This document shows, piece after piece, positions 1-49,284 of a stretch of 64,000 bases of DNA (within the stretch, counting starts at the first letter, position 1; each line of letters begins with the position of its first letter). This DNA is from a virus. Lineage: Duplodnaviria; Heunggongvirae; Uroviricota; Caudoviricetes. Position numbers and translations under genes: made by a program. The notes beneath the pieces were generated by a model, which was not told the DNA's origin, did not search any database, and was given only the letters and a program-made list of their open reading frames with translations. The stretch lies in the IMG/VR virus record IMGVR_UViG_3300021140_000485; one strand, written 5' to 3'.

Positions 1-57
1 TAAAGAGTAAACTTTTTAAAAAGTGGAAATTGTGTCATTTATTTTTAAATATGTTAA

Positions 58-9795: not shown

Positions 9796-10017
9796 TTACC
9801 AAGATTCAACATCAGTTAAATCAATTTCAACCTTAGCCAGGTGACTATAAACCACAAGACCATTTCCAATTCCTGTTGGAGTTATTTTCCAAGTGAATGT
9901 ACCATATTCTCCATAAATCGCTTTAATGTGTGATAACCATTCGTCATACATTTCCTGTTGTTTCTCATTAAGTTCCTCGTGAATTACAGTTTTTCTTATT
10001 TTATTCTCTTCCATCAC
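9796..10017 (-). CDS. Hypothetical protein.
   Basis: 73-aa ORF, 4-nt overlap with the RNA ligase gene. Confidence 0.45.
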   Translation of the reverse strand: MMEENKIRKTVIHEELNEKQQEMYDEWLSHIKAIYGEYGTFTWKITPTGIGNGLVVYSHLAKVEIDLTDVESW

Positions 10018-18772: not shown

Positions 18773-19567
18773 TTACGCGATTTTTTCAAACTTAGATAAA
18801 GTTTCACTTGCTTTAGAACGTGCCATACCTGATGAACCACCAGCATTCAAGTCAGCAAAATAGTTAGACGCGTCTTTTTCATTATCAAATTTAGGAAGTG
18901 AATTTGGTGATTTACCTTTTAACATAAAGGCAATTGCAACTTTGGCAGCTACTCTTGGGTCATCTAATGAATCAGGATTACCTTCAAGGTTTTCACCAAC
19001 AAGACTACCATATTTTTTGTAGTTCGCTCTACCTGTTAGTCCATTGAACCCTCTACCTCTGTATTTGTATCCATCACCAGGTTCAGTGTTACCCAATCTG
19101 ATACCTGATTTGTACCCATACATATATTCAAAAAAGTCCTTATTACTTTTTTTAAGTCTCGTTAACTGTCTATCACTTAACCTTTGGGCTCTTTTACCAA
19201 AAATACTTCTGATTCTATCGTTACTTGTATTACCGTAACCAATTTCAGAACCCATCTGAAAACCAGATTCTTTGGCCAAAACACTTAATATACCAATTTG
19301 AGTATCAACATCAGTAATACCCATTTTATTCATTTCATCTATCACGATTTCTACGTTTCTGCCGGCTTCACCACTATAACTGTGTTTGATTTTACCATTA
19401 TCGGAAACTTCAAGGTCGTCGGTTTTAACCTCATCACCTTTTGGTTTCTCTTCAGGCGCAAATGCTGAAAGGGTTTTTAAAAAATCGGCAAGTCTCCCAA
19501 TAGCTTGTTCATTTAAACCCATAAGTCTAAACTGCTTATTAACTTCTTTCAAAAGTGGTTTTGACAT
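18773..19567 (-). CDS. GH19 (chitinase-like) peptidoglycan hydrolase / endolysin candidate.
   Basis: 'GDGYKYRGRGFNGLTGRANYKKYG' matches the GH19 catalytic-core signature. Confidence 0.75.
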   Translation of the reverse strand: MSKPLLKEVNKQFRLMGLNEQAIGRLADFLKTLSAFAPEEKPKGDEVKTDDLEVSDNGKIKHSYSGEAGRNVEIVIDEMNKMGITDVDTQIGILSVLAKESGFQMGSEIGYGNTSNDRIRSIFGKRAQRLSDRQLTRLKKSNKDFFEYMYGYKSGIRLGNTEPGDGYKYRGRGFNGLTGRANYKKYGSLVGENLEGNPDSLDDPRVAAKVAIAFMLKGKSPNSLPKFDNEKDASNYFADLNAGGSSGMARSKASETLSKFEKIA

Positions 19568-19626: not shown

Positions 19627-19914
19627 ATGGCCGACAGGAATTTTTATATGAGAAGAGTATTGACCAAAATTGTAAAAAATATGGTTAGTAAAAATCCTGC
19701 ATTCAAAAATATTCGTTCAGTTGAAATACAATTCTTACTTAAATCTCCTGTTAGAAGCGCAATGTGTGATTGGGTTTATGGTCTTACTATCAAGACATAT
19801 AACGATGATGTTAACCAACCTCAAATAATTTCTCAAATAAAAGAAAGAATTGATTCTGTTACATCACAACTAACAAAAGACACTTTCTGTCTCACCGACT
19901 ATTACTTCGAGTAG
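19627..19914 (+). CDS. Hypothetical protein.
   Basis: 95-aa ORF. Confidence 0.4.
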   Translation: MADRNFYMRRVLTKIVKNMVSKNPAFKNIRSVEIQFLLKSPVRSAMCDWVYGLTIKTYNDDVNQPQIISQIKERIDSVTSQLTKDTFCLTDYYFE

Positions 19915-21029
19915 TCGTATTTACGAAAAATCCCATCTACCGTATGTAACGCTTGAGCAACCACTTGGTGCATATCATAATAAGCATAGGTCCCAAGTCT
20001 ACCCCCAAATATGTATTTAGATTCAGACTCTGTCAATGATTTATATTTTTCATAAATCTCAACATTTTTACCGTCTCTGATTGGGTAATATGGTTCGTTC
20101 TCACCAGTATACTCACAAGAGTATTCCTTACTGATATAAGTACCTTTTTGATTCTTAGGGTCAAACCATTTATGTTCTAATATTCGAGTATACTTAGTAT
20201 CAGAATCAGTAAAATTCATTACAGGGTTTCCTTGGAAGTTGTCAACTTCTAATTGGTAATTCTCCCATCTAAGACTACGATATTCCAATCGACCAAATTC
20301 GTAATCGTAAAACTTATCAATTGGTCCTGTGTAAATTATCTTATCAGATAAAGACTCAAGGATATCTCTATTCTCAAAAAAATCAAATTCAGTCAGTACT
20401 TCAATACCTGATAGTAGTTTTTCAAAAATTTGGGTATAACCTCCGTCAGGAATTCCTTGGTACTTGTCATTGAAATAATTGTTATTCCAAGTAAATCTAA
20501 CAGGTAATCTTTTAATAATGGATGGTGGTAGTTCAGAACATTTCTTATCCCATTGTTTCTCAGTATAACCTTTAATCAACTTTTCATATATGTCAGTCCC
20601 TACCATTGAAAGAGCTTGTTCTTCCAAATTAGTGATAGGTCCCTTATATTTTTGTTCATCAATCATATACTGTGCCTTTTCAGGTGTGTTAACACCCCAC
20701 AGTTGATTGAATGTCCACATATTGAAAGGTAATGAGTAAATCTCACCCTTATAGTTAGCCAAAGGTGAATTAACAAACTGATTAAAAGTTGCAAATCTGT
20801 TTACGTAGTTCCAAACTCTTTCATCATTAGTATGGAATATGTGAGCACCATACTTGTGAACGTGTATACCGTCTATATTTTCAGTATAACAGTTTCCACC
20901 GATATGATTTCTTTTTTCAACAACTAATACGTTGAATTTCTTACTTAGTTCGTGGGCGCAGATTGCTCCAAAGAGACCTGCCCCCACGATTACAAAGTCA
21001 TAATGTCTATAGGAAGTCAAAAACGACAC
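19902..21029 (-). CDS. glf: UDP-galactopyranose mutase.
   Basis: N-terminal FAD fold 'YDFVIVGAGLFGAICAHEL....VEKRNHIGGNCYT' and length/sequence colinear with Glf. Confidence 0.85.
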   Translation of the reverse strand: MSFLTSYRHYDFVIVGAGLFGAICAHELSKKFNVLVVEKRNHIGGNCYTENIDGIHVHKYGAHIFHTNDERVWNYVNRFATFNQFVNSPLANYKGEIYSLPFNMWTFNQLWGVNTPEKAQYMIDEQKYKGPITNLEEQALSMVGTDIYEKLIKGYTEKQWDKKCSELPPSIIKRLPVRFTWNNNYFNDKYQGIPDGGYTQIFEKLLSGIEVLTEFDFFENRDILESLSDKIIYTGPIDKFYDYEFGRLEYRSLRWENYQLEVDNFQGNPVMNFTDSDTKYTRILEHKWFDPKNQKGTYISKEYSCEYTGENEPYYPIRDGKNVEIYEKYKSLTESESKYIFGGRLGTYAYYDMHQVVAQALHTVDGIFRKYDYSK

Positions 21030-22164
21030 TGTCAGGAGATAATACAGGTTTATTAATCTTGTTCTCTAATCTTTCTTTGAACTCATACAAGAAGTTAGAT
21101 GAATTAGTATAACATCTATCCTCAATCAAGAAACACAAATTAGGATATGGGTTTTCTCTACCTTCATTAATCATTTGTTCAACAACCTCAAGAGCTTCTT
21201 TGTTCCTTTGTCTTTTCTCATAAAAGAATGCCAAATACATCAAGTGTTCATTTCTTGTTGGAGAGAACGGTCCTGCAGATTTGTAGTGTTCTTCCGCTTT
21301 ATCATACTCCCCTCTAAAGTTATATGCTTCACCCAAAAGTATAAATGTTAGATATGACATCTCATCTAATCTTGCAGGTTTACCAGTATTAAACCAGTTG
21401 TGATTAAGTGCTAAAAACTTATTAAAGTAGAAAATCGCTCTACGAGCATATTCGTCTGAGTGGTCCTTTCCAAATGCAAGTTCATCAGGATTTCCATAAC
21501 AATCAGCATAACTCTTACCAACATACCAAAGATGATACATATCCTCATTGATGGTGTTTCCAACAACTTTGTCAATTTCTAATTCCAAAGCATCTCTCAA
21601 AAACTTTCTTGGTGCAAACCAAGTCTGACCATCATTTGTGATTAAGTGTCTAAATCCAAAAGGTAGAACCATTCTTTGGAAATTTTCACCGACTTCAGGT
21701 AAGTGAATTGTTTCGTGTCTTTTATCGTGTTGAAAAAACCAAGGTCTTTTTGCATTCCATAACCAAGTTCTGTAATACTTTGTACCCATTGCCTGAGCTG
21801 TAATGTTGAATGAATCAATTGAAGTGTCTTCCAATACAGTCCAATCAAAGTCCTCATCAACAATTAGTTGTTCATCAGCATCCATTCTCAGAATCCAATC
21901 ACATCCGTGGTCAGCCTTCAAACATTCCTGTAAGGTATGGTCTCTATTCCATCCTGGATATTGCCATTCAATCTCATACAGGAATCCAGGAATCCCTTTT
22001 TCTTTGAAGTAGTTTCTTATAATGTCTTGTGTTCCGTCAGTAGACCCATTGTCCTGTATAACCCAATAATCAATATATTGGAAACAGGAGTCTAACATTC
22101 TTGTGATAGTTCTGGCCTCATTAGCCACCATCGCGTTTAAGCAAATTTTGGTTTTTTTATTCAT
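21007..22164 (-). CDS. Glycosyltransferase (GT-A-like N-terminal domain) with a C-terminal helical-repeat region.
   Basis: 'YWVIQDNGSTDGT' and 'MDADE'. The C-terminus has TPR-like helices. Confidence 0.65.
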   Translation of the reverse strand: MNKKTKICLNAMVANEARTITRMLDSCFQYIDYWVIQDNGSTDGTQDIIRNYFKEKGIPGFLYEIEWQYPGWNRDHTLQECLKADHGCDWILRMDADEQLIVDEDFDWTVLEDTSIDSFNITAQAMGTKYYRTWLWNAKRPWFFQHDKRHETIHLPEVGENFQRMVLPFGFRHLITNDGQTWFAPRKFLRDALELEIDKVVGNTINEDMYHLWYVGKSYADCYGNPDELAFGKDHSDEYARRAIFYFNKFLALNHNWFNTGKPARLDEMSYLTFILLGEAYNFRGEYDKAEEHYKSAGPFSPTRNEHLMYLAFFYEKRQRNKEALEVVEQMINEGRENPYPNLCFLIEDRCYTNSSNFLYEFKERLENKINKPVLSPDSVVFDFL

Positions 22165-23404
22165 AAATGTAATTCATTACTTGTTCTTGTTTATAGTATT
22201 TTTTGATTGGGACACTGTTTTGGAACTTTTGTGAGTGTTGTGTAATCTCATCCCAATTCCAATCAAAATAACCCATTTCTTCAATTCTGTCGTGTATTCT
22301 TTTATCATAGAAGTCCCTGATTAATCTGGCCCTACGATTAATATCTGTTGCATTATTATCAACTGTTGAGTTGTTATTGTTGTATTGTAGATATAACACC
22401 TTCTTTACGTGAATCATCTTGGTTTCTAAAAATGTACGAATAAGAATCTCCAAGTCATCAGCAACAGGTGTTAATTTATTGTGTCCTGAAATATTATGAT
22501 AAACACTTCTCTCCCACATTCTAGCGTGGTTTGGCATTGTGATATTGAATCTAATTGTGAGTGGGTTTACATCAGGGTACCAATGAGCAAGTCTATCAAC
22601 ACCGTCAACATTTACCCAACTGTGTCCAGCATACCCAAAGTCAAAATAGTTATCGTGACGAGCATACCAATTACCAGTCCAATCGTGGTCATAAAACTTA
22701 GGTTCACCGTCCTCGTATATCTCTGAACAATCAGTATAAAGAAATCCCGCGTCAGGGTATTTTAATATTGCATCATTAGCGGTTTCAAGACAAGTTGTAA
22801 CCAAACAATCATCGTGGTCCAATTCAATCAACCAATCACCATCACCTAACATAGCTGCACGATGTTTAGCCAAACCAATATTACCACCCGATAATGGATA
22901 AATCCTGTGAGGTTTTACCCGATAGTCTTTCTCCGCAATTTCAGTTATCATCTCCCAAGTTTCAGGGTCAGGCGAATCATCAACCACAACCCATTCCCAA
23001 TTATCAAAGGTTTGGTTGTTTAAAGACTCATAAGTCCTATAAATCCTTTCTCCTGTTTTGTAGGTTGGTGTGAAAATTGTAAATCTTGGTCTAAAATATT
23101 CACAGTTTCTAAACACAGTCTGACAAACAATTACGTTCGCCAAAATTGCTTCATCAATCGGTTCATCATAGTGAATGTGAAATCTTTTCAAATGATAGTG
23201 TGGGATGTTTACTTCTTCACCAAAACTTATAATTAAGTCAGGTTTATATTTTGTATAATCACCAACGACATCGTTTGTATATGGTAGATTATAAACAACA
23301 ACATCATCAAACAGATGTTCTTCCCAGTATATTTGTGAGATTAAGGTTGTTTCACCTTCCGTACCTAATCCATACACTATTGCTGACGGTTTTTTTGTCT
23401 TCAT
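22157..23404 (-). CDS. Family-2 glycosyltransferase with an N-terminal extension.
   Basis: 'FTIFTPTYKTGERI', 'WVVVDDSPD' and 'IELDHDD' (DxD). Confidence 0.75.
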   Translation of the reverse strand: MKTKKPSAIVYGLGTEGETTLISQIYWEEHLFDDVVVYNLPYTNDVVGDYTKYKPDLIISFGEEVNIPHYHLKRFHIHYDEPIDEAILANVIVCQTVFRNCEYFRPRFTIFTPTYKTGERIYRTYESLNNQTFDNWEWVVVDDSPDPETWEMITEIAEKDYRVKPHRIYPLSGGNIGLAKHRAAMLGDGDWLIELDHDDCLVTTCLETANDAILKYPDAGFLYTDCSEIYEDGEPKFYDHDWTGNWYARHDNYFDFGYAGHSWVNVDGVDRLAHWYPDVNPLTIRFNITMPNHARMWERSVYHNISGHNKLTPVADDLEILIRTFLETKMIHVKKVLYLQYNNNNSTVDNNATDINRRARLIRDFYDKRIHDRIEEMGYFDWNWDEITQHSQKFQNSVPIKKYYKQEQVMNYIYE

Positions 23405-25863: not shown

Positions 25864-26184
25864 TTACTTGGTAACCAAAGCTTCCACTTTGGATTTCATA
25901 TGTTCTGACAATGATACCTCACCAACCGTGGGTGTAATCAATGAAGTCAAAACAATTGAATCAACCAAATATTTGTACGGAATGTGAACCAAGAAGTCGG
26001 TACCATTGAAGAAATCCAAATCTCCTTTGAGTTCCAAACAACCGTGAACCATTTTCAAAAACAACTTAAACTGAATACCGTCAACAAAGGTTTCATTCAA
26101 GAGGGTCCCGAACTTCTCGTTCTCAATCCTAATATTGTATGTAAAATTGATTTTCATACCACAAATATAGAAATAACTTTTCAT
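25864..26184 (-). CDS. Hypothetical protein (start trimmed to 'MKSYF', downstream of the terminator hairpin).
   Basis: The ORF's longer N-terminal extension would run through the 26190..26219 hairpin. Confidence 0.45.
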   Translation of the reverse strand: MKSYFYICGMKINFTYNIRIENEKFGTLLNETFVDGIQFKLFLKMVHGCLELKGDLDFFNGTDFLVHIPYKYLVDSIVLTSLITPTVGEVSLSEHMKSKVEALVTK

Positions 26185-26189
26185 ATAAA

Positions 26190-26219
26190 CAAAAAAACCC
26201 GAAGATTTTTTTCTTCGGG
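26190..26219 (-). terminator. Intrinsic terminator on the minus strand (CCCGAAGA-a7-TCTTCGGG followed by TTTTTTT).
   Basis: Perfect 8-bp stem. It closes the tRNA plus noncoding transcription unit. Confidence 0.7.
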
Positions 26220-27170
26220 TTCTGGCACTTAGGTTGAGAATACACCTTCGATTAAGAATCTTTAGGGACATTATTGTTTCTTCCCGTTTCCACTACCTTT
26301 TGAGTAGTAATTCTTAGTGACGGTTCCTTAGGGGTACCATTCCTTGAGTCGTGCGGTTACTCTCTTTGTACTTGTTACTCTCCGAGGTTGCCACCCCAGT
26401 GAATCCTTGCGGGATTAGAGAACTTTCTCAAGAATCATTTGGGTCTTGGGAACCCATAATGGCAATGAACATCTCATTACTATGTAGTCACCTTTCGCCT
26501 ACGACTGACAGACACTTTTCCTTCGTCTTTTAGTATTTGCATACTTCAAAATGCAAAGTTGTTGGTCTGTGGATGGTGAAAGTAGCGGTCTGCCAACCAG
26601 ACAAGCCATCTTTTGAACGACTCGATACTGAACTACTCTCTGAGATATCCCTACCTCGATACTTCAAGAAATCTTCATAATTAAAATCTTGGTAGATTCT
26701 AACTAAGGTTACCAACAGCACCACCTGTACGATAACATGACTTTCGTCTTTAAGACACCTCTGATATTGAATCCCGTGATTGTAAAGTTGGATGACTTTA
26801 CTTCTCACAACAATTCTACGAGTTATTCTTATTGTTCTTCCGAACTCAACTCAACGACCCACATCGCTGAGTCATCATTCCATTTTGTCTACAGTGTCAC
26901 CCTCGACTACTCAGGAACAATGATATCCCGCTTGCCTACTCGAGCTCTAAGAACCGAAGTTCAAAGAACCGCAGTCTCCGTTAACCTTCGGAGACCACTT
27001 TATCCCACTTTCGTGGTTTATTTATTGACCATAGGCGGCCAATTATCTTATTTACTAACCTGTTGGTTAGAAGGATAATCAAATATGTAAAAGAACGTGT
27101 TTCGTTAATTGTTTCACAAAGTTAAGAAGATTATTTTAATCTGTCAAGCACTTTGTAAAAGTTTTTTTTG
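26220..27170 (-). ncRNA. Candidate structured noncoding RNA or 3' trailer co-transcribed with tRNA-Met. About 950 nt, elevated GC, no ORF longer than 113 aa in any frame.
   Basis: Bounded by the tRNA (5' side on the minus strand) and a strong terminator (3' side). The frame-track ORFs here are short and non-protein-like. Identity unknown. Confidence 0.3.
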
Positions 27171-27244
27171 TTGCGGGAGTCGGACTCGAACCGACGGCCT
27201 CAAGGTTATGAGCCTTGCGAGCTACCAACTGCTACCACCCCGCG
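27171..27244 (-). tRNA. tRNA-Met (anticodon CAU), initiator-like.
   Basis: Reverse complement reads 'CGCGGGGTGGTAGCAGTTGGTAGCTCGCAAGGCTCATAACCTTGAGGCCGTCGGTTCGAGTCCGACTCCCGCAA'. It shows a cloverleaf, a C1·A72 mismatch, a GTCGG/CCGAC T-stem and TTCGAGT T-loop, the anticodon loop CTCATAA, and no encoded CCA. Confidence 0.85.
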
Positions 27245-27474
27245 ATATATTTTAAAGAACGTGATTCGAAAAAAAATCCCAAAACTTATATCCTCTCGAA
27301 CACTCATTTTGGGATTTGGGGTTTGAGGATTCTACTCCTCTTCTTCCGAGTGTCTCACAAACTTACGAACAAATTTTGGACTTGTCAAATTGTTTATGAA
27401 ACTTTTTTTGGGGGTATTATCTACCTTTCGGTAGAGTTTTATAAATATATGCTAAAATTGGAAAAAACCAAGTC

Positions 27475-27894
27475 TTACAGTATATTCATTAACAATTTAT
27501 TTAATTTTTCTCCTGTTTCAAGGTTTTTTACTTGTTTTTTGGTAAAATAACCACATTCGGTGTGTTCCTCACCGTCTTTGGCACTCTCCAAATCAGGTAT
27601 AAGTTCCGTATCGCTATTGTATTCATATAGATACATTAGTCCCTTGAAGTGTTTACCATCACGCGTAAATCTTGGTAACATACCAGTGAACTTTAAGTTA
27701 TCAGGATTCAAATCTAAATCAGTTTCTTCTTTAAATTCTCTAACAGCTGCCACCCTTGTCTCTTCCCCCTCTTCAATTTTTCCCGCAGGAACAGACCACA
27801 TACCAGGGAAACTACCCTTCTTATTTCTCTTACATAGTAAGCATTTGTCACCAACTTTGACTAGTACACCGACGTATCTTTTGTAATCATTCAT
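27475..27894 (-). CDS. Nudix hydrolase.
   Basis: Nudix box 'GKIEEGEETRVAAVREFKEETDL'. Confidence 0.8.
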   Translation of the reverse strand: MNDYKRYVGVLVKVGDKCLLCKRNKKGSFPGMWSVPAGKIEEGEETRVAAVREFKEETDLDLNPDNLKFTGMLPRFTRDGKHFKGLMYLYEYNSDTELIPDLESAKDGEEHTECGYFTKKQVKNLETGEKLNKLLMNIL

Positions 27895-27908
27895 ATTTAT
27901 AGATATCT

Positions 27909-28259
27909 ATGAGAGTAAAAATAGGTGAAAATATATTCAATGTGAAGATTAGACACGACAATAAAGGTCGTGCTATGGGTATGATGGGTCGTAAATTTAC
28001 TGACGAGTATAACGGTATGTTATTCTTTATGGATGAAGACTCAAGTTGTTTTTGGATGAAGAACTGCGTCATTCCTCTTGATATCATATTCATTGATAAT
28101 AGAGTAATAACTAAGATACACCACGACTGTCCTCCTTGTAAAGAAGATGACTGTCCAAGTTATTGTGGAAAGGGTGGAATGATTTTAGAAATTATGGGTG
28201 GTTCTGCAAAAGAACTCGATATCAAAAAAGGTGATGAGATTAAGATTCTTGTTGACTAG
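27909..28259 (+). CDS. DUF192-family protein.
   Basis: 'GMMGRKF....GMLFFMDEDSSCFWMKNCVIPLDIIFID' follows the DUF192/COG1430 pattern. Confidence 0.6.
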   Translation: MRVKIGENIFNVKIRHDNKGRAMGMMGRKFTDEYNGMLFFMDEDSSCFWMKNCVIPLDIIFIDNRVITKIHHDCPPCKEDDCPSYCGKGGMILEIMGGSAKELDIKKGDEIKILVD

Positions 28260-29658
28260 CATCAATCTTCTCTTGTAACTTTCTCAAAAATTCCTCACCA
28301 ATCATTTTAACAAACTTAATGTAAGGAGCGTCCTCTCTTTCAGGGTCGTATCTGTATGAACCTCTTGGTGGTCTTGTACTTCTTCCAAGATAGTTAAGTC
28401 CTGATATGTTGGTAATACATTTGTGTCCACCTGAGTTAGCTTGAATCAAGTCCCAAGCGTTGATACCAATCTTATCTAACATTTGCATTTCTTCTTCAGA
28501 TAGTTGGTCGTATGGTTTTTCCATCATATCCTTAATTTTATCAAGGATTTTTTCACCACCATCCATCATCATCAACTTACCACCATAAATTGCATCGAAG
28601 TCTTTGAATGTAAATCCTACTGATTCAGGTCCAACTGATGATTCACTCACATACTTTATCGTTGATAATGGGATTGTTCTATCTTTAAGTTGTCCCTCCC
28701 ATTTGGCCAGAACCTCTTGTGCAATCTCACCGAGATTAACACCTTTGAGTTCTCTATCTTTTTTGAATGGATTACAAGATGCCTGTACTAACCCTAACGG
28801 CCACATAATAATTAAGAAGTCAGCTTCAGGATTGTTTCTAAAAGGAGTGTATCGGTCATATGACCCAGTACCTTTTAAACTACCCATACCATACTGAACG
28901 ATGATATTACCAATCTTCCTAACATTTGGATGACCTTTCATTGAGTCCATATAGGTCTCAGCGTTTCTTTGAAGGTCCTCAGGTTTTTCTCTTGTATTGG
29001 AACCCATCCAAGATTTGATGTTGTTTAATATTGAAAGTAAGGATGGTTCCGAATCATTAACCAAGTATTCAAGGAACCCTTTCTTGTTTTTGAACGCCAA
29101 CAATAGTTTGTTTGTAACAAATCCTAACAACATTTTGTTACTAGCCAAATCTTTTTCTTTGTTAAGTCTAAACAAATAATTGATTACATCCTTGGTTGTT
29201 AAACCATATTTGGCAAAGTCTGCTGAGTCGACAGTTGATATTAATCTAATGTCATCAGCAGGAAATAATTCTTTTGGTGAGATAATTTGTGAAATGGTTT
29301 CAACGTTTGACCTTGCCTGTCTAAAAGACTTTGAAGCGTCTTTCTCAGCACCGACTTGTTTGTCGTGGTGGTCAGTGTGAATAACAAACATTGGTTTACC
29401 GTGAGCAAAATCAACTAAGACTGGCATTACATCACCAGATGCATCAGGTTTTTTAACTGAGAATTCTTTATCTCCATACTGTATAACCTCACTATCAACA
29501 ACTTTAATACCATTATCTTCAAGGTATTTTTTCATTGCAATTGCAGTTGTTACACCATCCAAATCTTGGTGGAAATATATTTTAGCCTTTGGGTATCTTT
29601 GTGCCAAAGCCTTAATGTCTCTTAAACCTGATTCCTTAATTATTTTTTTCATACACAC
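28240..29658 (-). CDS. DHH-family phosphoesterase (NrnA/RecJ-like DHH plus a C-terminal domain).
   Basis: 'FHQDLDGVTT' (DxD) and 'VIHTDHHDK' (DHH) motifs. 472 aa. Confidence 0.7.
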   Translation of the reverse strand: MCMKKIIKESGLRDIKALAQRYPKAKIYFHQDLDGVTTAIAMKKYLEDNGIKVVDSEVIQYGDKEFSVKKPDASGDVMPVLVDFAHGKPMFVIHTDHHDKQVGAEKDASKSFRQARSNVETISQIISPKELFPADDIRLISTVDSADFAKYGLTTKDVINYLFRLNKEKDLASNKMLLGFVTNKLLLAFKNKKGFLEYLVNDSEPSLLSILNNIKSWMGSNTREKPEDLQRNAETYMDSMKGHPNVRKIGNIIVQYGMGSLKGTGSYDRYTPFRNNPEADFLIIMWPLGLVQASCNPFKKDRELKGVNLGEIAQEVLAKWEGQLKDRTIPLSTIKYVSESSVGPESVGFTFKDFDAIYGGKLMMMDGGEKILDKIKDMMEKPYDQLSEEEMQMLDKIGINAWDLIQANSGGHKCITNISGLNYLGRSTRPPRGSYRYDPEREDAPYIKFVKMIGEEFLRKLQEKIDASQQES

Positions 29659-29661
29659 TAA

Positions 29662-30033
29662 TTACATTGATGGTAACATACTCATAAGAACCACATCGTT
29701 AGCTCTTAACCCATTTTTAGCCTTTAAATTACACAAATGATTGAATTTATACATATGGTTCGCTTGCATCGTCATATCTTCTAATTTACTCAAACTATCA
29801 CCAGGTTTGATTTTATACAACATTATGTTTTGCACACCTTCGTTTTTAATATCTTTAACTAAATCTTCTTTAGTGAAACAATATTTTGCACCGGCTTCAG
29901 TTGGTTTAGGACCTTTTTTAAGAATCTCTTCCGCTTTTTTAACGTAAAAAGATTCAGGTTGTGTCTGTTCACTAACAACCTTACGAATTAAGTTAGTTAA
30001 TTCTGACTCTGTTAATCTAATAACTTTTTTCAT
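29662..30033 (-). CDS. Hypothetical protein. Its N-terminus 'MKKVIRLTESELTNLIRKVVSEQ' belongs to the leader family.
   Basis: 123-aa ORF. Confidence 0.5.
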   Translation of the reverse strand: MKKVIRLTESELTNLIRKVVSEQTQPESFYVKKAEEILKKGPKPTEAGAKYCFTKEDLVKDIKNEGVQNIMLYKIKPGDSLSKLEDMTMQANHMYKFNHLCNLKAKNGLRANDVVLMSMLPSM

Positions 30034-30404
30034 TAGTATTTAAGTGTTAATAGGTATTTTAATTTGTTTATTAATAGTAACATCTCATCTCTCAAGTTGA
30101 GTAAGTCGCTATCAACTTTAGGGTCTAATCTGTCAGTAAGTGAAATTAAAAATTCACACGTACCATCAATAAAGCTTTGTAATGACATTGATTCTAAGTC
30201 TTGAAACATAATTGAGAATGATTCTGTAAATTCAGGTCTACCATATTTACCCATCATACCTTCAACAAAGTCATCAATGAATCCCCCCATTTTATCGTAT
30301 ACTTTACCGTATGCTCTGTGTTTTGCGTCATACATAGTTTGCCAATGTATAAATCTAAATTGGTTTTGTATTTGTACTAATTTTAATATTACTTCTTCTT
30401 TCAT
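30033..30404 (-). CDS. Hypothetical protein.
   Basis: 123-aa ORF. Confidence 0.5.
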   Translation of the reverse strand: MKEEVILKLVQIQNQFRFIHWQTMYDAKHRAYGKVYDKMGGFIDDFVEGMMGKYGRPEFTESFSIMFQDLESMSLQSFIDGTCEFLISLTDRLDPKVDSDLLNLRDEMLLLINKLKYLLTLKY

Positions 30405-30405
30405 T

Positions 30406-31461
30406 TTAAGCCGTCATTGGTCCTTTTATTAATGTATTCATAAACATACCCATTATATCCATTTTTTGTGAACCTAAAGACATTTCGTTACCACCATCTT
30501 TAACTTCATCTGATACTTTTGGGAAATCCTCTTGTAAATATGTTTGTGCTTCAGGAGTTTTTTCATACTTCTCCATCTTGGCTAATAATTCGTCTTCCCC
30601 TCCAACTATTTTTTCAAGTTCATCTGGTCCAACAAAATTTGCAACACCTAAATAATCTAAGAATCCTAAATAGAATTTGGTTTTACCCATCAAAACTCTA
30701 ATCTTCATATTACCTTTTCTCCATAGGTCCGAAACTCTTCCAGCACCTAATCCACCACCATAAAAAAATCTTTGTAAAAAATTTGGTTTGTTTAAAATTG
30801 TGGGGTCCAAGAATTTTTCTCTCTTAACTAACGACTCAAGTCCTTGAATTAGTTCTTGTTGTTGTTTAGCAGATTTAGTAGGTAATCTTTTCGCTAAAGA
30901 AGCCGCCTCAGTTCCAACACCTCTAAAAAGTCTTACCCATTCTTTGATGGTGTTTTTAAATCCTCTTGTGATGGCTCCACCAGGTATACGGTCAATGAAT
31001 TCATCAACTTTTGGTGCCCATTCTCTACCTTTTCTTGCGAAAGTACCAAGAGCACCTTCACTTTTAGCAATTTGATTTAGATATTTTTGCGCTTTAACAG
31101 TATCACCAGCATCAACTGCTTTAGATACCGCTCTCATTAATTGAGGTGTTTTACCCCCAACTTTCATCGCTCCCATAACAGATTTACCTAAAGCATCACC
31201 AATGTAAGGGACAACAGAAATTAACGATAAAAAGGCATAAAGGTTATCGCCTTGTCTGTAATAAGATATTGCGTTTATTAAATCAGCAATTCCTGTTGGG
31301 TCTACAATCCCAACCAAACTTAACACATCATTTTTCCAATTGTCCTCGTTAAGAGTTTTAGTATCAGAAGTTTTTTCCAATACCATAACACTCTTAATGA
31401 TTTCAAGTTGGGATTCCGTTAATATTACTTGAGGCATAAATTCTTTTACAATAAATACCAA
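30406..31461 (-). CDS. Hypothetical protein. It carries 'MPQVILTESQLEIIKSV' near its N-terminus, so the start may be the internal Met at 31437.
   Basis: 351-aa ORF, Gly/Ala/Lys-rich. Confidence 0.55.
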   Translation of the reverse strand: MVFIVKEFMPQVILTESQLEIIKSVMVLEKTSDTKTLNEDNWKNDVLSLVGIVDPTGIADLINAISYYRQGDNLYAFLSLISVVPYIGDALGKSVMGAMKVGGKTPQLMRAVSKAVDAGDTVKAQKYLNQIAKSEGALGTFARKGREWAPKVDEFIDRIPGGAITRGFKNTIKEWVRLFRGVGTEAASLAKRLPTKSAKQQQELIQGLESLVKREKFLDPTILNKPNFLQRFFYGGGLGAGRVSDLWRKGNMKIRVLMGKTKFYLGFLDYLGVANFVGPDELEKIVGGEDELLAKMEKYEKTPEAQTYLQEDFPKVSDEVKDGGNEMSLGSQKMDIMGMFMNTLIKGPMTA

Positions 31462-31465
31462 GAAG

Positions 31466-31492
31466 TTAAAAAGAAAACCCCCACTTTTTTAG
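31466..31492 (-). terminator. Conserved-family terminator ('AAAACCCCCAC-tttttta-GTGAGGGTT').
   Basis: Overlaps the stop of the methyltransferase gene, with a minus-strand U-run. Confidence 0.6.
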
Positions 31493-32358
31493 TGAGGGTT
31501 CTGATTGTTGAAATCGATGACTTGTTGTCTTCGTTGTTCTACGAATAACCCGACTCTGTCTCGAGCCACTTTAGAATAGTTTGGACTCAGTTCAATACCA
31601 ATCCATCTTCTGTCAAGTGTCTCAGCGGCGACCAAACTTGTACCTGAACCTGCGAATGGGTCAAGAACAATGTCATTCTTATACGTAAGAATTTTGATTG
31701 CCTTGGTTGGAATATCCATTGAGAACGTGGCTTTAGTTAGACTTCGTGTGTCAGCAAAGTATTTCCACTGTCCGAAAACCAAATCGATGAACTCACGTTT
31801 TTGTTGTTCCGTATACATCATCTTTGGTCTCATATTACCATCCTTACCTTCTACTTCTCCCATTTCGCCAGTCCATTCAGGTTGACCTTTTACTTTCTTA
31901 ATGTGTTTGTTTTTGTATGCCAAAATAACACATTCTTTTGGGTTATAGATGTAAGGGGCTGAAGGGCTCATCCAAGACCCCCAAGCCGTGGTACGACTTC
32001 TATGTGGTGATTCTTCTTCAAGGTCAACAACTCCGAAGAATTTGTAACCAATCTGTTTCATAATCTGCCACACTTCACTGACCATAAAGATTCTACCTCC
32101 TTTATCCTGACGGTTGATTTCGTATGGGATGTTAAGAGCAATCCTACCATCATCTTTCAATACACGGTATGCTTGTTCCATCCACGAATATGTAAATTTT
32201 ACATATTCCTCCCAAACCATATCATCTTCGTGAACATCATAATCGATACCAACACCATAAGGTGGTGATGTAACAATCAGGTCCACTGAACCTTCAGGCA
32301 TCGAAGCCATCACTTCAATACAATCTCCATTAATTACTCTTCCAATTAAATCTTCCAT
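31489..32358 (-). CDS. DNA methyltransferase (N6-adenine/N4-cytosine, beta-class motif order).
   Basis: Motif IV 'DLIVTSPPYG' near the N-terminus and motif I 'LDPFAGSGTS' near the C-terminus. Confidence 0.8.
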   Translation of the reverse strand: MEDLIGRVINGDCIEVMASMPEGSVDLIVTSPPYGVGIDYDVHEDDMVWEEYVKFTYSWMEQAYRVLKDDGRIALNIPYEINRQDKGGRIFMVSEVWQIMKQIGYKFFGVVDLEEESPHRSRTTAWGSWMSPSAPYIYNPKECVILAYKNKHIKKVKGQPEWTGEMGEVEGKDGNMRPKMMYTEQQKREFIDLVFGQWKYFADTRSLTKATFSMDIPTKAIKILTYKNDIVLDPFAGSGTSLVAAETLDRRWIGIELSPNYSKVARDRVGLFVEQRRQQVIDFNNQNPH

Positions 32359-32359
32359 A

Positions 32360-33529
32360 TTATAATCCTAAAATTTCAAGGGTTTTATTCACTCTACTTT
32401 GTGGTGACAAGTTTCTTTCATAATACTCCCTTGCGTTTTTAGAAATATAACTTAAAAATTCGTGGTCATCAACAACCTCTTTGAATCTTTCCTCAATCAT
32501 TTTTACGTGGTGAGGTCCTGATAGTCGGTCACTGGCAACTCCATTGTGTCTTGGCATATCATCAGGATATGGAACAGAAATGTAATGTACGTTTGGAATT
32601 AACTTTTCGTGCATTTCAACTTGGAACTCAAATCTAATCAATGGCATTCCAATCGCCATACATTCAATGTCTCTATAACAAAGTTCTCCCACTCCTGCCA
32701 TAGACAACGACACTTGGTAATCTATCATATCATTGAAGTATGCTTCAGGGGTTGTTGGTGTTTCGGGACAATACAACAACTCATCCGAGAAATGTTTTAA
32801 AGCGGGTCTTTGTGAAACATTACCTCTGAAATACATTAAAGGTACTTTGTTTTGAACGTGTTTTCTTTTGTGATAAAACTGTTCCAAGTCAATCAAACCA
32901 GATGGGAAATAAATCCAAGGTGAGTATTTGTCATAGTTATTATCAACGTGGTGTTTAATCTTGTAATCAATGAACTGTGAAATCAAAACCTTCTTACATA
33001 AAGGATTGTGTTTCTCATTCATAGTTGCGTAACCCAAGTCATCAGAGACACTCATAATCCAAAACTCACCAGAGTCAGCATCTTCAATAACATATTCACA
33101 CTCCAACAATAAGAATTCTTTGGCAAGACCTTTTTTTAATTTAATTTCTTGTCTGTCAAAGTGAGCATTCTCAAAATGCCTGTTCTCAATAACCTCATAT
33201 CGTTCTGATAGTTCTTGGGTTAACTCATCCCAAAATAAATTGTAATTACGATAGTATCGAGTTTTGTCATTTGTTGGGTTATGGATTATCAGTCTACGAT
33301 GAGGTTTATCACCATTTCCACTTTTATTCTGAACCTCACGGTTGAGATACCATAGAGCTTTATTCAAATCTTGAAGTTCCTTGTCAGTCCCCTTTTTACC
33401 TGCCCTTGAAATATATTTTACAGTATTCCCAAGATTAAATCCTAAGTCCCAAGCTTCAATAACTTTTATTGCTTCATATGGATTATTCTTTCCCCCATAA
33501 TGTTGAGGGTGATTTACTTGTTCACTCAT
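32360..33529 (-). CDS. DUF3310-domain protein with a C-terminal domain of roughly 300 aa and unknown (possibly transferase-like) function.
   Basis: 'HPQHYGGKNNPYEAIKVIEAW.....GNTVKYISRAGKK....AL...WYL' fits the DUF3310 pattern. Confidence 0.65.
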   Translation of the reverse strand: MSEQVNHPQHYGGKNNPYEAIKVIEAWDLGFNLGNTVKYISRAGKKGTDKELQDLNKALWYLNREVQNKSGNGDKPHRRLIIHNPTNDKTRYYRNYNLFWDELTQELSERYEVIENRHFENAHFDRQEIKLKKGLAKEFLLLECEYVIEDADSGEFWIMSVSDDLGYATMNEKHNPLCKKVLISQFIDYKIKHHVDNNYDKYSPWIYFPSGLIDLEQFYHKRKHVQNKVPLMYFRGNVSQRPALKHFSDELLYCPETPTTPEAYFNDMIDYQVSLSMAGVGELCYRDIECMAIGMPLIRFEFQVEMHEKLIPNVHYISVPYPDDMPRHNGVASDRLSGPHHVKMIEERFKEVVDDHEFLSYISKNAREYYERNLSPQSRVNKTLEILGL

Positions 33530-33532
33530 ATA

Positions 33533-34696
33533 TTAATCGTTATAAATTGAACCACTTTTATTTTCAGACTCTTCGAATTGATGTTGTTCCATAATATCTT
33601 TAAGTGGTGATTTTTGAGTATCAACTTTAGTATTCATATTATGAATAATCTTATCAAGAGTTAATGCAAAGTCCAGAGTTTCGGATATGATACCAACAAT
33701 TTTATATGGGTCACCATTTGATGCCGGTCTACGGTCTTCAACATAACCCTTCCATTCTTTTGATGTAGACAATGGAACTCTGATTGATGCACCTCGGTCA
33801 GCAACCCCCCAACTAAACTTGTCAATAGATTGGGTTTCGTGTTTACCAGTCAAACGAAGATTGTTATCAGAACCGTAATTGTTAATGTGTAACTGATGAC
33901 GTGAATCAAAGGCGTTAAAGATGTTTTTGAAGTATTCATCACCACCTTCATTTCTCATCTTGTCATTTGAGAAGTTACAGTGTAATCCTGAACCATTCCA
34001 ATCACCCATCACAGGTTTAGGGTGGAATTCAATCTTAAAACCATAGTCCTCAGACATTTGTTGTAAAATGTATCTCGACATCCACAAATCATCACCGGCC
34101 TTTAATTTACCTTTGGAGAATACCTGGTACTCCCACTGACCCAATAAGACCTCGGCGTTTGTACCTGTAATTTCAATACCTGCCAAGATACAATTTTCCA
34201 TATGAGTATCCACAAATTTTCTACCGTTAACTTGTCCGTTACCTACACCACAATAGTATTTTCCTTGTGGTTCAGGATATCCATTCTCAGGGAAACCCAA
34301 AGGTCTACCATCTTTCATAATGGTATACTCTTGTTCAAAACCAAACCAAAGGTCCTCTTCTTCTTCCCCAACAAGACTTCTTGTATTTGATACGTGTGGA
34401 GTCCCATCGGGATTCATAACCTCACACAACACCAAGAAAGACCATAGACCACCTTCGTTAAGTGAGTTGTGATAAACTCTAACAGGTTTCAAAATACAAT
34501 CAGAAAAATGTCCGTCAGCTTGTTGTGTTGATGAACCATCAAAACTCCACTCAGGGCAATCCTTCAGTGTTATAATATCCCCATATGGAATATTCTGAAG
34601 ACCAGTCTCTTCTTTTTCAATCACCTTAACCTTACTTCTAAGATTAGGTTCTGGCTGATACCCATCCAACCACACATATTCTAATTTAACTTTCAT
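33533..34696 (-). CDS. Glutamine synthetase type-II-like protein.
   Basis: 'LEYVWLDG', 'FDGSSTQQADG..SD..L.PV', 'LVLCEV', 'GVADRGASIRVP' and 'NGDPY' are colinear with the GSII beta-grasp and catalytic domains. Confidence 0.75.
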   Translation of the reverse strand: MKVKLEYVWLDGYQPEPNLRSKVKVIEKEETGLQNIPYGDIITLKDCPEWSFDGSSTQQADGHFSDCILKPVRVYHNSLNEGGLWSFLVLCEVMNPDGTPHVSNTRSLVGEEEEDLWFGFEQEYTIMKDGRPLGFPENGYPEPQGKYYCGVGNGQVNGRKFVDTHMENCILAGIEITGTNAEVLLGQWEYQVFSKGKLKAGDDLWMSRYILQQMSEDYGFKIEFHPKPVMGDWNGSGLHCNFSNDKMRNEGGDEYFKNIFNAFDSRHQLHINNYGSDNNLRLTGKHETQSIDKFSWGVADRGASIRVPLSTSKEWKGYVEDRRPASNGDPYKIVGIISETLDFALTLDKIIHNMNTKVDTQKSPLKDIMEQHQFEESENKSGSIYND

Positions 34697-38424: not shown

Positions 38425-39447
38425 GTGATGACAGGGAAATTACAAAGATTAATCGACGATGTTAATAATGGTAAATTTGATATTATCAAAGATTTTTTTG
38501 GTGATATGGAAACTTTTTTGGACTATCTTGGTAAAAAAGGTTTGATACACGAATTAGACCTTATTAACAACGAAGAAGAATTCGAATATGAAGTTAACAA
38601 AATAGCCCTCGCAATTAAAGAACATAATCCCGAAAAATTTAGAGAATATGTTTTATCTTCATTAAGTGATGTTACTTATGAAAATGGTGAATACTATGTG
38701 ACTTTGAATGATAAAAGTAGACTCGCGTATCTTTTTTGTGATGATAGAAGAAATGGTATGTCTCAATCAACAATATCAGAGATACTAGATGGTGAATGGG
38801 ATTTTGATTTTTGGGATACTACCGATAATGTTTATAGGGATGTTATTCAAGAACTAAATAAGGATAATCTTACTTATTTATCAAAAAAAATAAGTAACGA
38901 ATTATCTGACGTTAAGGTAGAACCTGAAACAGAATTGTTAGAAGAAATTGCCGAGGAACAAGGTCATCCTGAATATGTAACCTTAACCCCCGAGTTGATT
39001 CACGACAGAATATTCAATGATGAGGATTCAACAGAAAGTATTTTGAATGAAACCGAAAACATTAAATCAGATTTACACTCATTACATAACAGAGCATATG
39101 CAAATGCTTATGAAGATGAGGTGTATAGTGGTATAATGGATGAACTTGAAACATTTTTTGATATGCGCCATTCTGATTGGATAACAGTTCCAAGTAGTGT
39201 AAACCCAAACAAATCTTATACCTATTTCAAAGTTAAAATAAATAATTTTGATTCAGAGATTTCCGATTACCTTAATAACGCGAAGAATCATAATGAACCA
39301 TTAAGTAATTATGGTGACTATCTTAGTATTTTGAGTGAAAATATTAGTTATGGTAGTGCCAATTGTTTGGTATATTACACGCCTGATTATGCGGATTGGC
39401 CAAAAACAAAAGAAAATATTAACGAACTTTTTGGTGACTATTTTTAA
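38425..39447 (+). CDS. Acidic hypothetical protein.
   Basis: 340-aa ORF. Confidence 0.55.
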
Positions 39448-42400: not shown

Positions 42401-42602
42401 TGTTTGTAACTGTATTAGCACTTAAATTTGTATTTTGTACTTGGAATATAGGTGCTGTCTTGGCAATTTTTAGATATGTTGTTGTTTGATTTACAACATA
42501 ATTCAATGTAGAACTAGAATATACCAAATCACTTCGAGTATTCCCCGAATCATAAAATTGTATTGTTATACTTGCAGGTACTATTATTATATTCTCAGCC
42601 AC
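39444..42602 (-). CDS. Collagen-like (Gly-X-Gln triplet) fibre protein with a C-terminal intramolecular-chaperone / peptidase S74 domain. Candidate tail fibre.
   Basis: About 290 uninterrupted G-x-Q triplets. The C-terminus '[12 protein letters not shown]....FKWR......GFIAQEV' matches the SDxRLK auto-cleaving chaperone signature. The N-terminal roughly 90 aa is non-repetitive. Confidence 0.85.
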
Positions 42603-45600: not shown

Positions 45601-46017
45601 TTGAGCACCTTGTGCTCCTACTGCTCCTTGAGCACCAGTACTACCTTGTGCTCCTTGAGCTCCTGTACTACCACCCCCACCTTGAGCTCCCGTTGTTCCT
45701 TGTGCCCCAACATTTCCTTGAGCTCCTTGAGCACCTTTAATAGTTGTTTGTGGTCCAATCCATACACCGGCATTATTAATCATATTTTGACCACCAACCC
45801 ATAAACCTGATGGTGAACTTGATATTGTAACACCTGTAGTTGTTATGTCATTATTACTGAAAACTACTAATGATGGACTTGTTGTTGCAGAAAATTTGAC
45901 ATCACCCGGTGCAACCATATTAATTTGGATACTATCCGCAGCAGACGCCCCCTCGTATACTATATGAGGCGATGAGTTTCCTGTAGTTCCACTTGGATAT
46001 ATTATTACGTCTGCCAT
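42595..46017 (-). CDS. Collagen-like fibre protein paralogue 2 with a C-terminal S74 chaperone domain.
   Basis: Gly-X-Y repeats with periodic one-residue insertions ([12 protein letters not shown]). The C-terminus is '[12 protein letters not shown]...VSFDW...GFIAQQV'. Confidence 0.85.
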
Positions 46018-46020
46018 ATA

Positions 46021-49000: not shown

Positions 49001-49284
49001 TTACCTTGGAATCCTGTTATATTTGTTCCAGGTCCTAACCAAGCACCTGTACCATTTAATACTTGAATTCCTCCAATAGTTAGATTATTAATGATATTAA
49101 TATCATCATACGCTTGGATACCACCCGATGACATTAATAATGTAGAACCCCACTTTATAGAAGTACCAGCACCATAAGGTCTGACCTCTAACCTCAAAGT
49201 TCCCGTATTTTCAAAATCAATATAGGGAATCCTTCCGGGATTCGGGACTAAATTACCAGGTACAATTGTTATATTTTTTGCCAT
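46021..49284 (-). CDS. Collagen-like fibre protein paralogue 3 with a Cys-rich linker and a C-terminal S74 chaperone domain.
   Basis: G-N-x / G-A-Q triplets. The C-terminus is '[13 protein letters not shown]...VEFDWNE...FGFIAQEV'. Confidence 0.85.

Follow-up and report, generated by a model that had tools for sequence, protein, structure and literature searches.

Three neighbouring genes in a 64,000-nucleotide stretch of Caudoviricetes DNA (IMG/VR record IMGVR_UViG_3300021140_000485; hereafter the window) encode a Nudix hydrolase, a DUF192 protein and a large DHH-family phosphoesterase. Do they form a module directed against the nucleotide signals of host defence, as the original prediction proposed, and what does the phosphoesterase do? 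All three open reading frames were found exactly where they had been placed, and the DUF192 gene is indeed wedged between the other two on the opposite strand (Table 1). They are real genes rather than chance reading frames, because they have thousands of conserved homologues. The DUF192 and DHH genes are convergent and their 3' ends overlap by 20 nt, while a spacer of 14 nt separates the ATG codons of DUF192 and Nudix. The DHH protein (P0001) has the predicted length of 472 aa only when read from a GTG; public gene calls use the ATG at 29652.

Table 1. Features of the locus in the window and domains of the 470-aa DHH protein
Feature	Position	Strand	Remarks
RNA unit next to the three genes	26194-27447	-	
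Terminator-like hairpin of the RNA unit	26194-26223	-	
GOLLD RNA, conserved 3' half	26231-26640	-	Rfam RF02032, 307.5 bits (gathering 150), E 1e-88
tRNA-Met	27170-27244	-	ARAGORN
TATTTAT element of the RNA unit	27441-27447	-	
Nudix hydrolase gene	27475-27894	-	139 aa
TATTTAT promoter-like element before DUF192	27894-27900	+	first T 15 nt before the DUF192 ATG
DUF192 gene	27909-28259	+	116 aa
DHH/DHHA1 phosphoesterase gene, from GTG	28240-29658	-	472 aa
DHH/DHHA1 phosphoesterase gene, from ATG	28240-29652	-	470 aa
p123	29662-30033	-	no family; LysM-like C-terminal motif seen by eye only
DUF5856 protein	30033-30404	-	
p351	30406-31437/31461	-	no family
TATTTAT element	31451-31457	-	20 nt before the p351 ATG (31437)
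Terminator-like hairpin	31474-31502	-	after the methyltransferase gene
DHH domain	residues about 20-160		
Helical insert between DHH and DHHA1	residues about 169-237		
DHHA1 domain	residues 244-425		inner helical insert, about 300-392
GGH motif of DHHA1	residues 408-410		
C-terminal helix	residues 443-469		

The large reading frame encodes a two-domain DHH/DHHA1 phosphoesterase in which every metal-binding and catalytic motif is intact. The residues H28-x-D30-x-D32-G33, D81, D94-H95-H96 and D142, which comprise DHH motifs I (DxD) to IV (D), are invariant in 52 diverse homologues, and S407-G408-G409-H410, the GGGH-type motif of DHHA1, is invariant or nearly so. The two α/β domains and the linker characteristic of the superfamily are present, and the second α/β domain of the predicted model aligns to the DHHA1 domains of solved enzymes. 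Judged by these residues, the enzyme looks catalytically competent. Profile searches gave only 21.1 bits against Pfam DHH (PF01368), below the gathering cutoff of 28.1, and ten long relatives scored likewise (17–28 bits). DHHA1 (PF02272) had no Pfam match at E<=0.01; PHROG, NCBIfam and PADLOC returned no matches for the protein, nor did phmmer against the PDB. Because the sequence match is sub-threshold, the DHH assignment is secure only through motif conservation and the predicted fold. The predicted families of the two smaller proteins were thus recovered with Pfam, and that of the large one by motifs and fold but not at the Pfam threshold. The extra C-terminal domain of 180 aa that had been attributed to it was rejected: the GGH motif lies close to the end of the chain, and both the motif positions and the model place the surplus length in two helical insertions and one C-terminal helix. 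No OB fold, transmembrane segment, PAS or GGDEF domain accompanies the DHH module in Pfam or in the model.

The fold group closest to the window protein contains NrnA, the PAP phosphatase of M. thermolithotrophicus (8a8k) and the Bacteroides Nrn (4py9/3w5w). NrnA-type nanoRNases are stand-alone DHH-DHHA1 enzymes of about 310–340 aa that act on pAp and on RNA of 2–5 nucleotides, whereas the window protein is about 150 residues longer owing to its two helical insertions and C-terminal helix, and is only 12–15% identical to NrnA/pAp phosphatases. Its family also differs from theirs in being viral, in its modular C-terminal fusions and in its weak detection by Pfam. GdpP, DhhP/Pde2, TM1595 and PggH, which are phosphodiesterases of cyclic or linear dinucleotides, share its fold and motifs, with global TM scores of only 0.3–0.4. 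Among them, DhhP is the top Foldseek match of the model (E 1.7e-8) and PggH is the only PDB sequence touched by the family profile (E 0.038), the alignment covering motifs III and IV. GdpP-type enzymes carry N-terminal transmembrane helices, PAS and degenerate GGDEF domains, for which the window protein, whose DHH domain begins near its N-terminus, has no counterpart. The subfamily is unannotated, and it is equidistant from NrnA/pAp phosphatases, from the DhhP/GdpP/PggH-type phosphodiesterases and from archaeal RecJ/GAN.

A rival reading is a replication or recombination factor resembling RecJ, GAN or Cdc45, which would degrade ssDNA exonucleolytically (5'-3' or 3'-5') or associate with the helicase as a subunit. 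Cdc45 and archaeal GAN are marked by a CID insertion and by association with the helicase (CMG); the window protein has helical insertions, which may or may not correspond to the CID. A distant homologue (P0237), with DnaB on one side and RNR on the other, belongs to a PrimPol-gp32-RecA-FEN-DnaB module. It is the only distant homologue adjoining DnaB, and the context in the clade of the window is not a replication module. Bacterial RecJ has, besides its core, an OB fold with which it forms a ring for ssDNA; the window protein has neither an OB nor an S1 domain. Cdc45 has lost the catalytic residues that the window protein retains. We regard such a role as very unlikely.

The reading we favour, tentatively and with somewhat less than even confidence, is that the DHH protein is a short-oligonucleotide phosphodiesterase that has DUF192 as its partner and is encoded inside a wider conserved block. 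It would be an exo-phosphodiesterase of the Mn2+ type acting on short 5'-phosphorylated substrates, namely pAp, linear dinucleotides, nanoRNA or short ssDNA. Stand-alone DHH/DHHA1 enzymes of comparable size without an OB fold all act on such substrates. In the infected cell it may clear or recycle short oligonucleotides. Nucleotide pools would be fed in this way, and the linear products left by the breakdown of cyclic signals would be removed as well. The neighbours with roles in nucleotide metabolism or replication are counted in favour of this reading: a DUF3310 protein (PHROG label "nucleotide kinase") conserved upstream of DHH, DnaB and RNR beside P0237, and PolB, which abuts a DHH-sigma fusion in locus L163.

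The Nudix reading frame matches Pfam NUDIX with 70.1 bits (E 2.5e-19, cutoff 21.1); its Nudix box GKIEEGEETRVAAVREFKEETDL is complete and is retained in 63 relatives. The box is of the GX5EX7REUXEEXGU type, with the catalytic Glu residues conserved and D in place of the penultimate G. In the PDB it comes closest to MutT, Ap4A hydrolase and RppH-like enzymes (E 1e-7 to 1e-5), and no NCBIfam equivalog cutoff is reached; by these matches the protein is a small MutT-like hydrolase. Its likely task is to trim pyrophosphate-linked nucleotides or the 5' ends of RNA, which would place it in the same turnover pathway as DHH. The DUF192 reading frame matches Pfam DUF192 (PF02643 / COG1430) with 85.9 bits (E 2e-24, cutoff 27), and it matches PDB 3m7a (E 6.6e-14). 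Cys74, Cys77 and Cys82 (CxxCxxxxC) are conserved in 84 sequences and absent from 3m7a, and PHROGs, NCBIfam and PADLOC had no match for the protein. Its sequence is that of a phage-specific DUF192 variant with conserved cysteines.

The genomic context shows that the DHH gene sits in a conserved block wider than three genes, and not in a three-gene operon. The order on the minus strand is p351, DUF5856, p123, DHH, Nudix, tRNA-Met and GOLLD RNA, with DUF192 antisense between DHH and Nudix; the upstream part of the block also holds the DUF3310 and methyltransferase genes. Gaps among p351, DUF5856, p123 and DHH are only 0–9 nt and their synteny is conserved in relatives, and the three upstream genes are probably co-transcribed with DHH and Nudix. 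The hairpin after the methyltransferase gene, together with the TATTTAT element that follows it, would mark the start of the transcription unit containing DHH and Nudix. TATTTAT occurs 39 times in the window, 14 of them 7–35 nt upstream of start codons (p 8e-17), and is common to the DHH, tail-fibre and lysin genes. The label "late/structural" for genes driven by this element is drawn only from the tail-fibre and lysin genes, because two neighbouring large reading frames (579 aa and 583 aa) had no tblastn match among phages. The element before DUF192 starts opposite the opening base of the Nudix start codon and extends from there into the spacer between the two genes.

Strand, promoter and co-occurrence all speak against a three-gene operon: DUF192 is antisense and has a TATTTAT of its own, and neither small gene is constant. 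Among 54 dereplicated lineages, DUF192 lies downstream of DHH in 37 (antisense in all but one of them), and Nudix follows DUF192 in 29 and is absent from the other 25, so that DUF192 is the tighter neighbour. In the huge-phage locus L005 a Nudix-like reading frame, itself sub-threshold (E 0.002), stands four genes downstream of DHH. TATTTAT immediately precedes the DUF192 ATG in 32 of 45 lineages and the DHH gene in 17 of 71. DUF192 is probably the real partner of DHH, because it is a conserved convergent neighbour, shares the promoter-like element and is fused to it in frame once; Nudix would be a facultative neighbour. The pairing of Nudix with DHH that had been put forward as a counter-defence pair is accordingly not borne out by the context.

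The in-frame fusion occurs in P0182, from a Tara Oceans scaffold, in which DUF192 is joined to the DHH C-terminus. Compared with its SET-bearing sisters it represents a clean domain swap. C-terminal extensions of at least 90 aa were found in 19 of the 85 full-length cluster representatives of the DHH family. Apart from this single DUF192, the fused domains are M23/PG-binding/GH19 lysins, TseH-like, SET, SAM-lyase/DUF3293 and ECF sigma domains; SAM lyases are a family of anti-restriction enzymes. The domains were classified with domain-limited seeds, and a count of 43 "fused" lysins from a drifting jackhmmer search was set aside. That the fusions are gene-calling artefacts was rejected, as they are continuous table-11 reading frames in the DNA of many loci. 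Some may nevertheless be merged neighbouring genes, because one sigma partner also occurs, in L232, as a separate gene downstream of DHH. The C-terminus of DHH would be a site of recombination and fusion for lysin, sigma, SET, SAM-lyase or DUF192 domains, and the DHH module would therefore be expressed with phage functions at the host interface and sometimes be physically joined to them. Such swappable partners are natural guilt-by-association clues, and a host-interface or counter-defence role fits this part of the context.

Could DHH then be a counter-defence effector after all? Among known phage enzymes, Acb1 is a 2H phosphoesterase and Apyc1 has a metallo-β-lactamase fold; the degradation of nucleotide signals by these enzymes would be analogous to the role proposed for DHH, but their folds differ from it, and none of the searches gave a sequence or structural relation of the DHH protein to either. 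The effector reading holds that DHH, synthesised late, packaged and carried into the cell along with the DNA, hydrolyses host immune or second messengers, namely the cyclic oligonucleotides of CBASS or type III CRISPR, or c-di-AMP. Nudix would take away ADP-ribose-type signals, with DUF192 as an accessory subunit. Such a role against defence is plausible. Iyer et al. (2021, PMC7824862) proposed it for the DHH phosphodiesterases and Nudix proteins of other jumbo phages, and for DHH proteins of giant viruses, as a means of countering nucleotide signalling (SMODS/CBASS, type III CRISPR). The same paper cites the degradation of c-di-AMP or cA4 by GdpP, by DhhP and by a membrane DHH-DHHA1 nuclease of archaea. 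The TATTTAT element that DHH has in common with tail-fibre and lysin genes would fit a protein that is synthesised late and packaged, and the SAM-lyase/DUF3293, ECF sigma, SET, M23 + PG_binding + GH19 and TseH-like fusions resemble the mixture of disparate activities in the injected polyvalent proteins of phages and conjugative elements (Iyer et al. 2017, PMC5512222). However, at least two disparate domains per polypeptide, the feature of polyvalent proteins, are found in the DHH relatives and not in the window protein, which is a single DHH/DHHA1 module, and DHH has 0 occurrences in the polyvalent-protein survey (PMC5512222). In the literature searched, no DHH enzyme of a phage has been shown to act against defence. 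In addition, the whole clade has the gene in a single syntenic position, over 54–100% identity, and in this it is unlike typical anti-defence genes, which are patchy. The lineages that have no Nudix, the distant homologues in replication modules and the separate sigma gene of L232 also weigh against the effector reading, and we consider it rather unlikely.

A bolder version makes DHH the constant enzymatic head of polymorphic host-takeover effectors, expressed late from the TATTTAT promoter class, packaged, and brought in with the DNA, which would destroy the host's cyclic-nucleotide immune or second messengers with DUF192 as a dedicated partner subunit and with lysin, sigma, SET or SAM-lyase domains swapped as C-terminal cargo. 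We hold this to be quite improbable; were it true, it would provide the first DHH-family anti-defence enzyme and the first function for DUF192. For the oligonucleotide phosphodiesterase that we prefer, knowledge of the substrate would also test whether DHH enzymes of phages erase nucleotide immune signals, as predicted in 2021, and would give a first functional handle on DUF192.

Downstream of the Nudix gene lies the RNA unit with tRNA-Met and GOLLD RNA, in which the variable 5' half of GOLLD probably also lies. GOLLD is found on the same strand, 0.65–3.5 kb downstream of DHH, in 23 of 44 lineages; of the 22 lineages with both DUF192 and Nudix, 17 have it there. RppH-type Nudix enzymes act on RNA 5' ends, and DHH and Nudix might mature or turn over GOLLD or its 5' end, or DHH might act at lysis. 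The RNA unit bears the same TATTTAT element, GOLLD expression rises at phage lysis (PMC12286853), and a lysozyme gene adjoins DHH, or lysin domains are fused to it, in 14 of 54 lineages. The synteny is nevertheless limited to one phage clade, many lineages have DHH and no GOLLD, DHH is also present in huge phages and archaeal-type contigs, and no mechanism ties a nanoRNase-type enzyme to this RNA. A role in RNA processing or lysis has, in our estimation, a very slim chance of being correct.

The distribution of the DHH family gives the short-oligonucleotide phosphodiesterase its wider setting. About 4,000 clusters at 90% identity are present in lake and ocean metagenomes, and there are only 382 clusters at 50% identity among 1.84 billion proteins, with no classical DHH proteins retrieved. 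The family has been missed by standard domain libraries despite this abundance: every named source labels its members as hypothetical protein, and cluster look-ups gave no informative names. It is nearly confined to a very abundant clade of aquatic phages with large genomes, on contigs of up to 326 kb, and extends to huge phages and archaeal-type contigs. The predicted hosts of the clade are Bacteroidota. The substrate, once known, would provide a function for a gene conserved in a major clade of large, uncultured aquatic phages, the one that carries the environmental GOLLD RNAs. Against 50,697 phage records, megablast of positions 26000-34000 gave no match and tblastn of the DHH protein matched only 4 uncultured huge phages, retrieving none of the DHH proteins known from jumbo phages in culture (such as Bacillus phage AR9 "NrnB", Erwinia PhiEaH1 and Pseudomonas PaBG). 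The latter are likewise phage-encoded DHH enzymes, with the same published functional hypothesis, but belong to another subfamily (Foldseek TM about 0.3, E 1e-6 to 1e-3, 10–13% identity). An alignment of distant members returned only 3 proteins when used as query, and P0188 and P0159, two distant members each used alone, retrieved nothing from IMG/VR. A scan of a genome collection found one MAG contig labelled Methanosarcinales, in which the neighbours of the gene are without Pfam matches, and a metagenome scan gave mostly the abundant aquatic-phage clade again.

The large ORF encodes a divergent DHH/DHHA1 enzyme of a new subfamily, which is abundant and phage-dominated, has DUF192 as its partner and a C-terminus that can be swapped, and lies beside a GOLLD RNA locus in a large clade of uncultured aquatic phages. 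All three ORFs of the original prediction were found, with DUF192 antisense to both Nudix and the large ORF; at its stop, DUF192 runs 20 nt into the end of the large ORF, and 14 nt separate the DUF192 and Nudix ATGs. Both smaller proteins clear the Pfam threshold of their families. The DHH assignment of the large protein, whose identical public counterparts begin at an ATG two codons on (470 aa), also stands, although by sequence alone it is weak (Pfam 21.1 bits versus a cutoff of 28.1). No DHHA1, PHROG, NCBIfam or PADLOC match was obtained, and phmmer found none in the PDB. At 50% identity, an exhaustive HMMER search returned 382 clusters, 134 of them at E<=1e-30, and classical DHH proteins were absent. 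In an alignment of 52 members (26-64% identity), H28, D30, D32, G33, D81, D94-H95-H96, D142, R267-Y268, N294 and G408-G409-H410 are invariant, and these residues constitute DHH motifs I-IV and the GGH of DHHA1. Foldseek against the whole PDB concurs, at 10-14% identity and with no subfamily clearly nearest. Because of the invariant motifs and this agreement, the protein is predicted to be a catalytically competent member of a separate subfamily. The proposed extra C-terminal domain of 180 aa is absent: the GGH is found at 408-410 of 470, and the additional length consists of two helical insertions (about 169-237 and about 300-392) and a terminal helix.

Features of the window
Feature	Position	Strand	Remarks
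TATTTAT sites	3696, 3707, 8852, 25231, 27894, 38416	+	
TATTTAT sites	58551, 51971, 49311, 38143, 31457, 27447, 19587, 12485, 3604	-	
RNA ligase	10014-11027	-	PHA02142 OB domain
GH19-like protein, probable lysin	18773-19567	-	264 aa; TATTTAT element ahead
UDP-galactopyranose mutase, two family-2 glycosyltransferases	19902-23404	-	one glycosyltransferase with TPR repeats
Terminator-like hairpin after GOLLD	26194-26223		
GOLLD RNA, conserved 3' half	26231-26640	-	Rfam RF02032, full-length match, 307.5 bits, E 1e-88
tRNA-Met	27170-27244	-	directly downstream of Nudix
Nudix	27475-27894	-	Pfam E 2.5e-19, well over threshold
DUF192	27909-28259	+	Pfam E 2e-24, well over threshold
Large ORF (DHH/DHHA1)	28240-29658	-	472 aa from GTG
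p123	29662-30033	-	123 aa; directly upstream of DHH
DNA methyltransferases (two)	31489-32358; 51993-52877		
GlnII-type glutamine synthetase-like gene	33533-34696	-	NCBIfam GlnII 389 bits, under 500 cutoff
Three consecutive large ORFs	39444-49284	-	1052-1140 aa; G+C 0.43-0.56 (genome about 33%)
DUF5661-containing protein	58572-59543	-	323 aa

Gene context was counted in 54 lineages, obtained from 251 related loci dereplicated at 90% identity with at least 1.5 kb required on each side. DUF192 lies directly downstream of DHH in 37 of them, on the opposite strand in 36 of the 37, the two stops usually abutting or overlapping; in one lineage (L229) DUF192 is on the DHH strand and Nudix opposite, the reverse of the usual arrangement, as if the pair had been inverted locally. 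Nudix follows the DUF192 region in 29/54 lineages, and a T4-type lysozyme gene directly precedes DHH in 10/54. Synteny upstream (DUF3310, an N6/N4 methyltransferase, p351, DUF5856) is equally conserved. The most distant members all lack a nearby DUF192 and any clear Nudix; in the huge-phage copy, a Nudix is four genes away and only sub-threshold. The DHH gene is therefore part of a synteny block conserved within one large phage clade, and the self-contained three-gene module once suggested was not borne out. Of these distant members, P0237 is flanked by DnaB and RNR in a PrimPol-gp32-RecA-FEN-DnaB module, and a DHH-sigma fusion adjoins PolB. The DHH protein of the window carries no DNA-binding or sensor domains.

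The subfamily comprises about 4,000 matching clusters (90% identity), mostly of about 470 aa, and wherever a member is named, the source labels it a hypothetical protein. The contigs reach 262-326 kb and some are Tara Oceans scaffolds, with a T9SS Por_Secre_tail protein in one relative hinting at Bacteroidota hosts (1212 aa; L171, 13854-17492). The marine relatives L168-L171 (29-289 kb, two above 260 kb) carry ribosomal protein S21 and thioredoxin/glutaredoxin genes, and two of them a SAM synthetase. Of 50,697 deposited phage genomes just four match, all from uncultured huge phages, and the only true members in BFVD are two uncultured phage proteins; cultured jumbo phages and giant viruses encode DHH proteins that are far removed from the subfamily (TM about 0.3). 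Rare homologues occur on an archaeal-type chromosome stretch (L086-L088, ENA contigs of up to 532 kb), where UDG and Methyltransf_28 are followed by SecE, Spt5/NusG, S10, EF-1alpha and Rpb7, and on one contig (CAZOOV010000009.1) of a MAG labelled Methanosarcinales, with neighbours without Pfam match; both are distant, at 28-29% identity.

The C-terminus is variable, with extensions of at least 90 aa in 19 of 85 full-length cluster representatives; those identified are Peptidase_M23 with two PG_binding_1 and GH19, a TseH-like peptidoglycan hydrolase, a SET domain, a SAM lyase/DUF3293 and an ECF sigma factor. Some of these fusions may be merged neighbours, because in one lineage (L232) the sigma factor stands as a separate gene downstream of DHH. 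The GH19-like protein of the window, encoded apart from DHH, is homologous (E 2e-47) to the C-terminal lysin part fused to DHH in relatives such as L128 and L099. A 936-aa member (P0168) has an N-terminal extension with the DUF5661 domain, also present in a separate protein of the window. In one Tara scaffold, recovered from three samples, the C-terminal half of DHH is fused in frame to a DUF192 domain with 42% identity to that of the window, Cys motif included, and sister phages (79% identity) have a SET domain after the same linker. That DUF192 and the DHH enzyme work together is best supported by this fusion and the conserved adjacency, to which Nudix offers no counterpart. Residues 74-86 of the phage DUF192 form a conserved Cys cluster, CPPCKEDDCPSYC, with C74, C77 and C82 at least 95% conserved in 84 sequences. 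This cluster, a candidate metal site, has no equivalent in the bacterial DUF192 of known structure (3m7a).

The window contains 39 copies of the heptamer TATTTAT, usually with g/a before it and a/c after it, and 14 of them lie 7-35 nt ahead of a start codon (p 8e-17). It precedes five of the six plus-strand genes, DUF192 (27894) among them, and on the minus strand p351 (31457, where a terminator-like hairpin at 31502-31474 comes shortly before it), the GH19-like lysin, the first of the collagen-like tail-fibre genes and the tRNA-Met/GOLLD unit (27447). In related contigs it stands directly before the DUF192 ATG in 32/45 lineages and the DHH ATG in 17/71, and it is probably a conserved phage promoter class. 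The site at 31457 likely drives p351, DUF5856, p123, DHH and Nudix; that at 27447, tRNA-Met and GOLLD up to the hairpin at 26223; and that at 27894, DUF192, converging on the DHH 3' end. From this map, DHH and DUF192 therefore seem to share one promoter class, probably late, with tail-fibre and lysin genes. The variable 5' half of GOLLD probably corresponds to the ORF-poor stretch 26640-27170; GOLLD lies downstream of DHH in 23 of the 44 lineages that had sufficient flank. The GOLLD whose structure was solved by cryo-EM, a 14-mer nanocage with a function as yet unknown, is an environmental one that also follows a Met-tRNA (PMC12286853).

The active site is intact, DUF192 is a conserved partner and Nudix is facultative. 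Our tentative preference is for a metal-dependent exo-phosphodiesterase of short 5'-phosphorylated nucleotides (pAp, dinucleotides, nanoRNA, short ssDNA), which would clear or recycle oligonucleotides during infection. Host takeover or counter-defence, earlier proposed for other jumbo-phage DHH and Nudix proteins (PMC7824862), is kept in play by the fusion partners and the promoter class; however, a typical accessory anti-defence gene would not be expected to keep so fixed a syntenic position, and the literature searched offered no experimental support. We regard this role as plausible but less likely. The RecJ/Cdc45-like and RNA- or lysis-linked roles are less likely than either. The original observation is largely right, apart from the architecture of the large protein. 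Its interpretation is partly supported, with the families correct but neither the three-gene module nor an anti-defence function established.

Regarding other genes, the C-terminal YKIKPGDSLSKL...GLRANDVVLMS of p123 looks LysM-like by eye, with no Pfam match at E<=0.01. Glutamine synthetase-like genes recur near DHH in the marine relatives L168-L171 and also adjoin the archaeal-type homologue (L086). The three large ORFs are taken as collagen-like tail fibres because the first contains collagen triple-helix repeats (E 1e-89) and a Peptidase_S74 intramolecular chaperone, and their anomalous G+C is due to the repeats.
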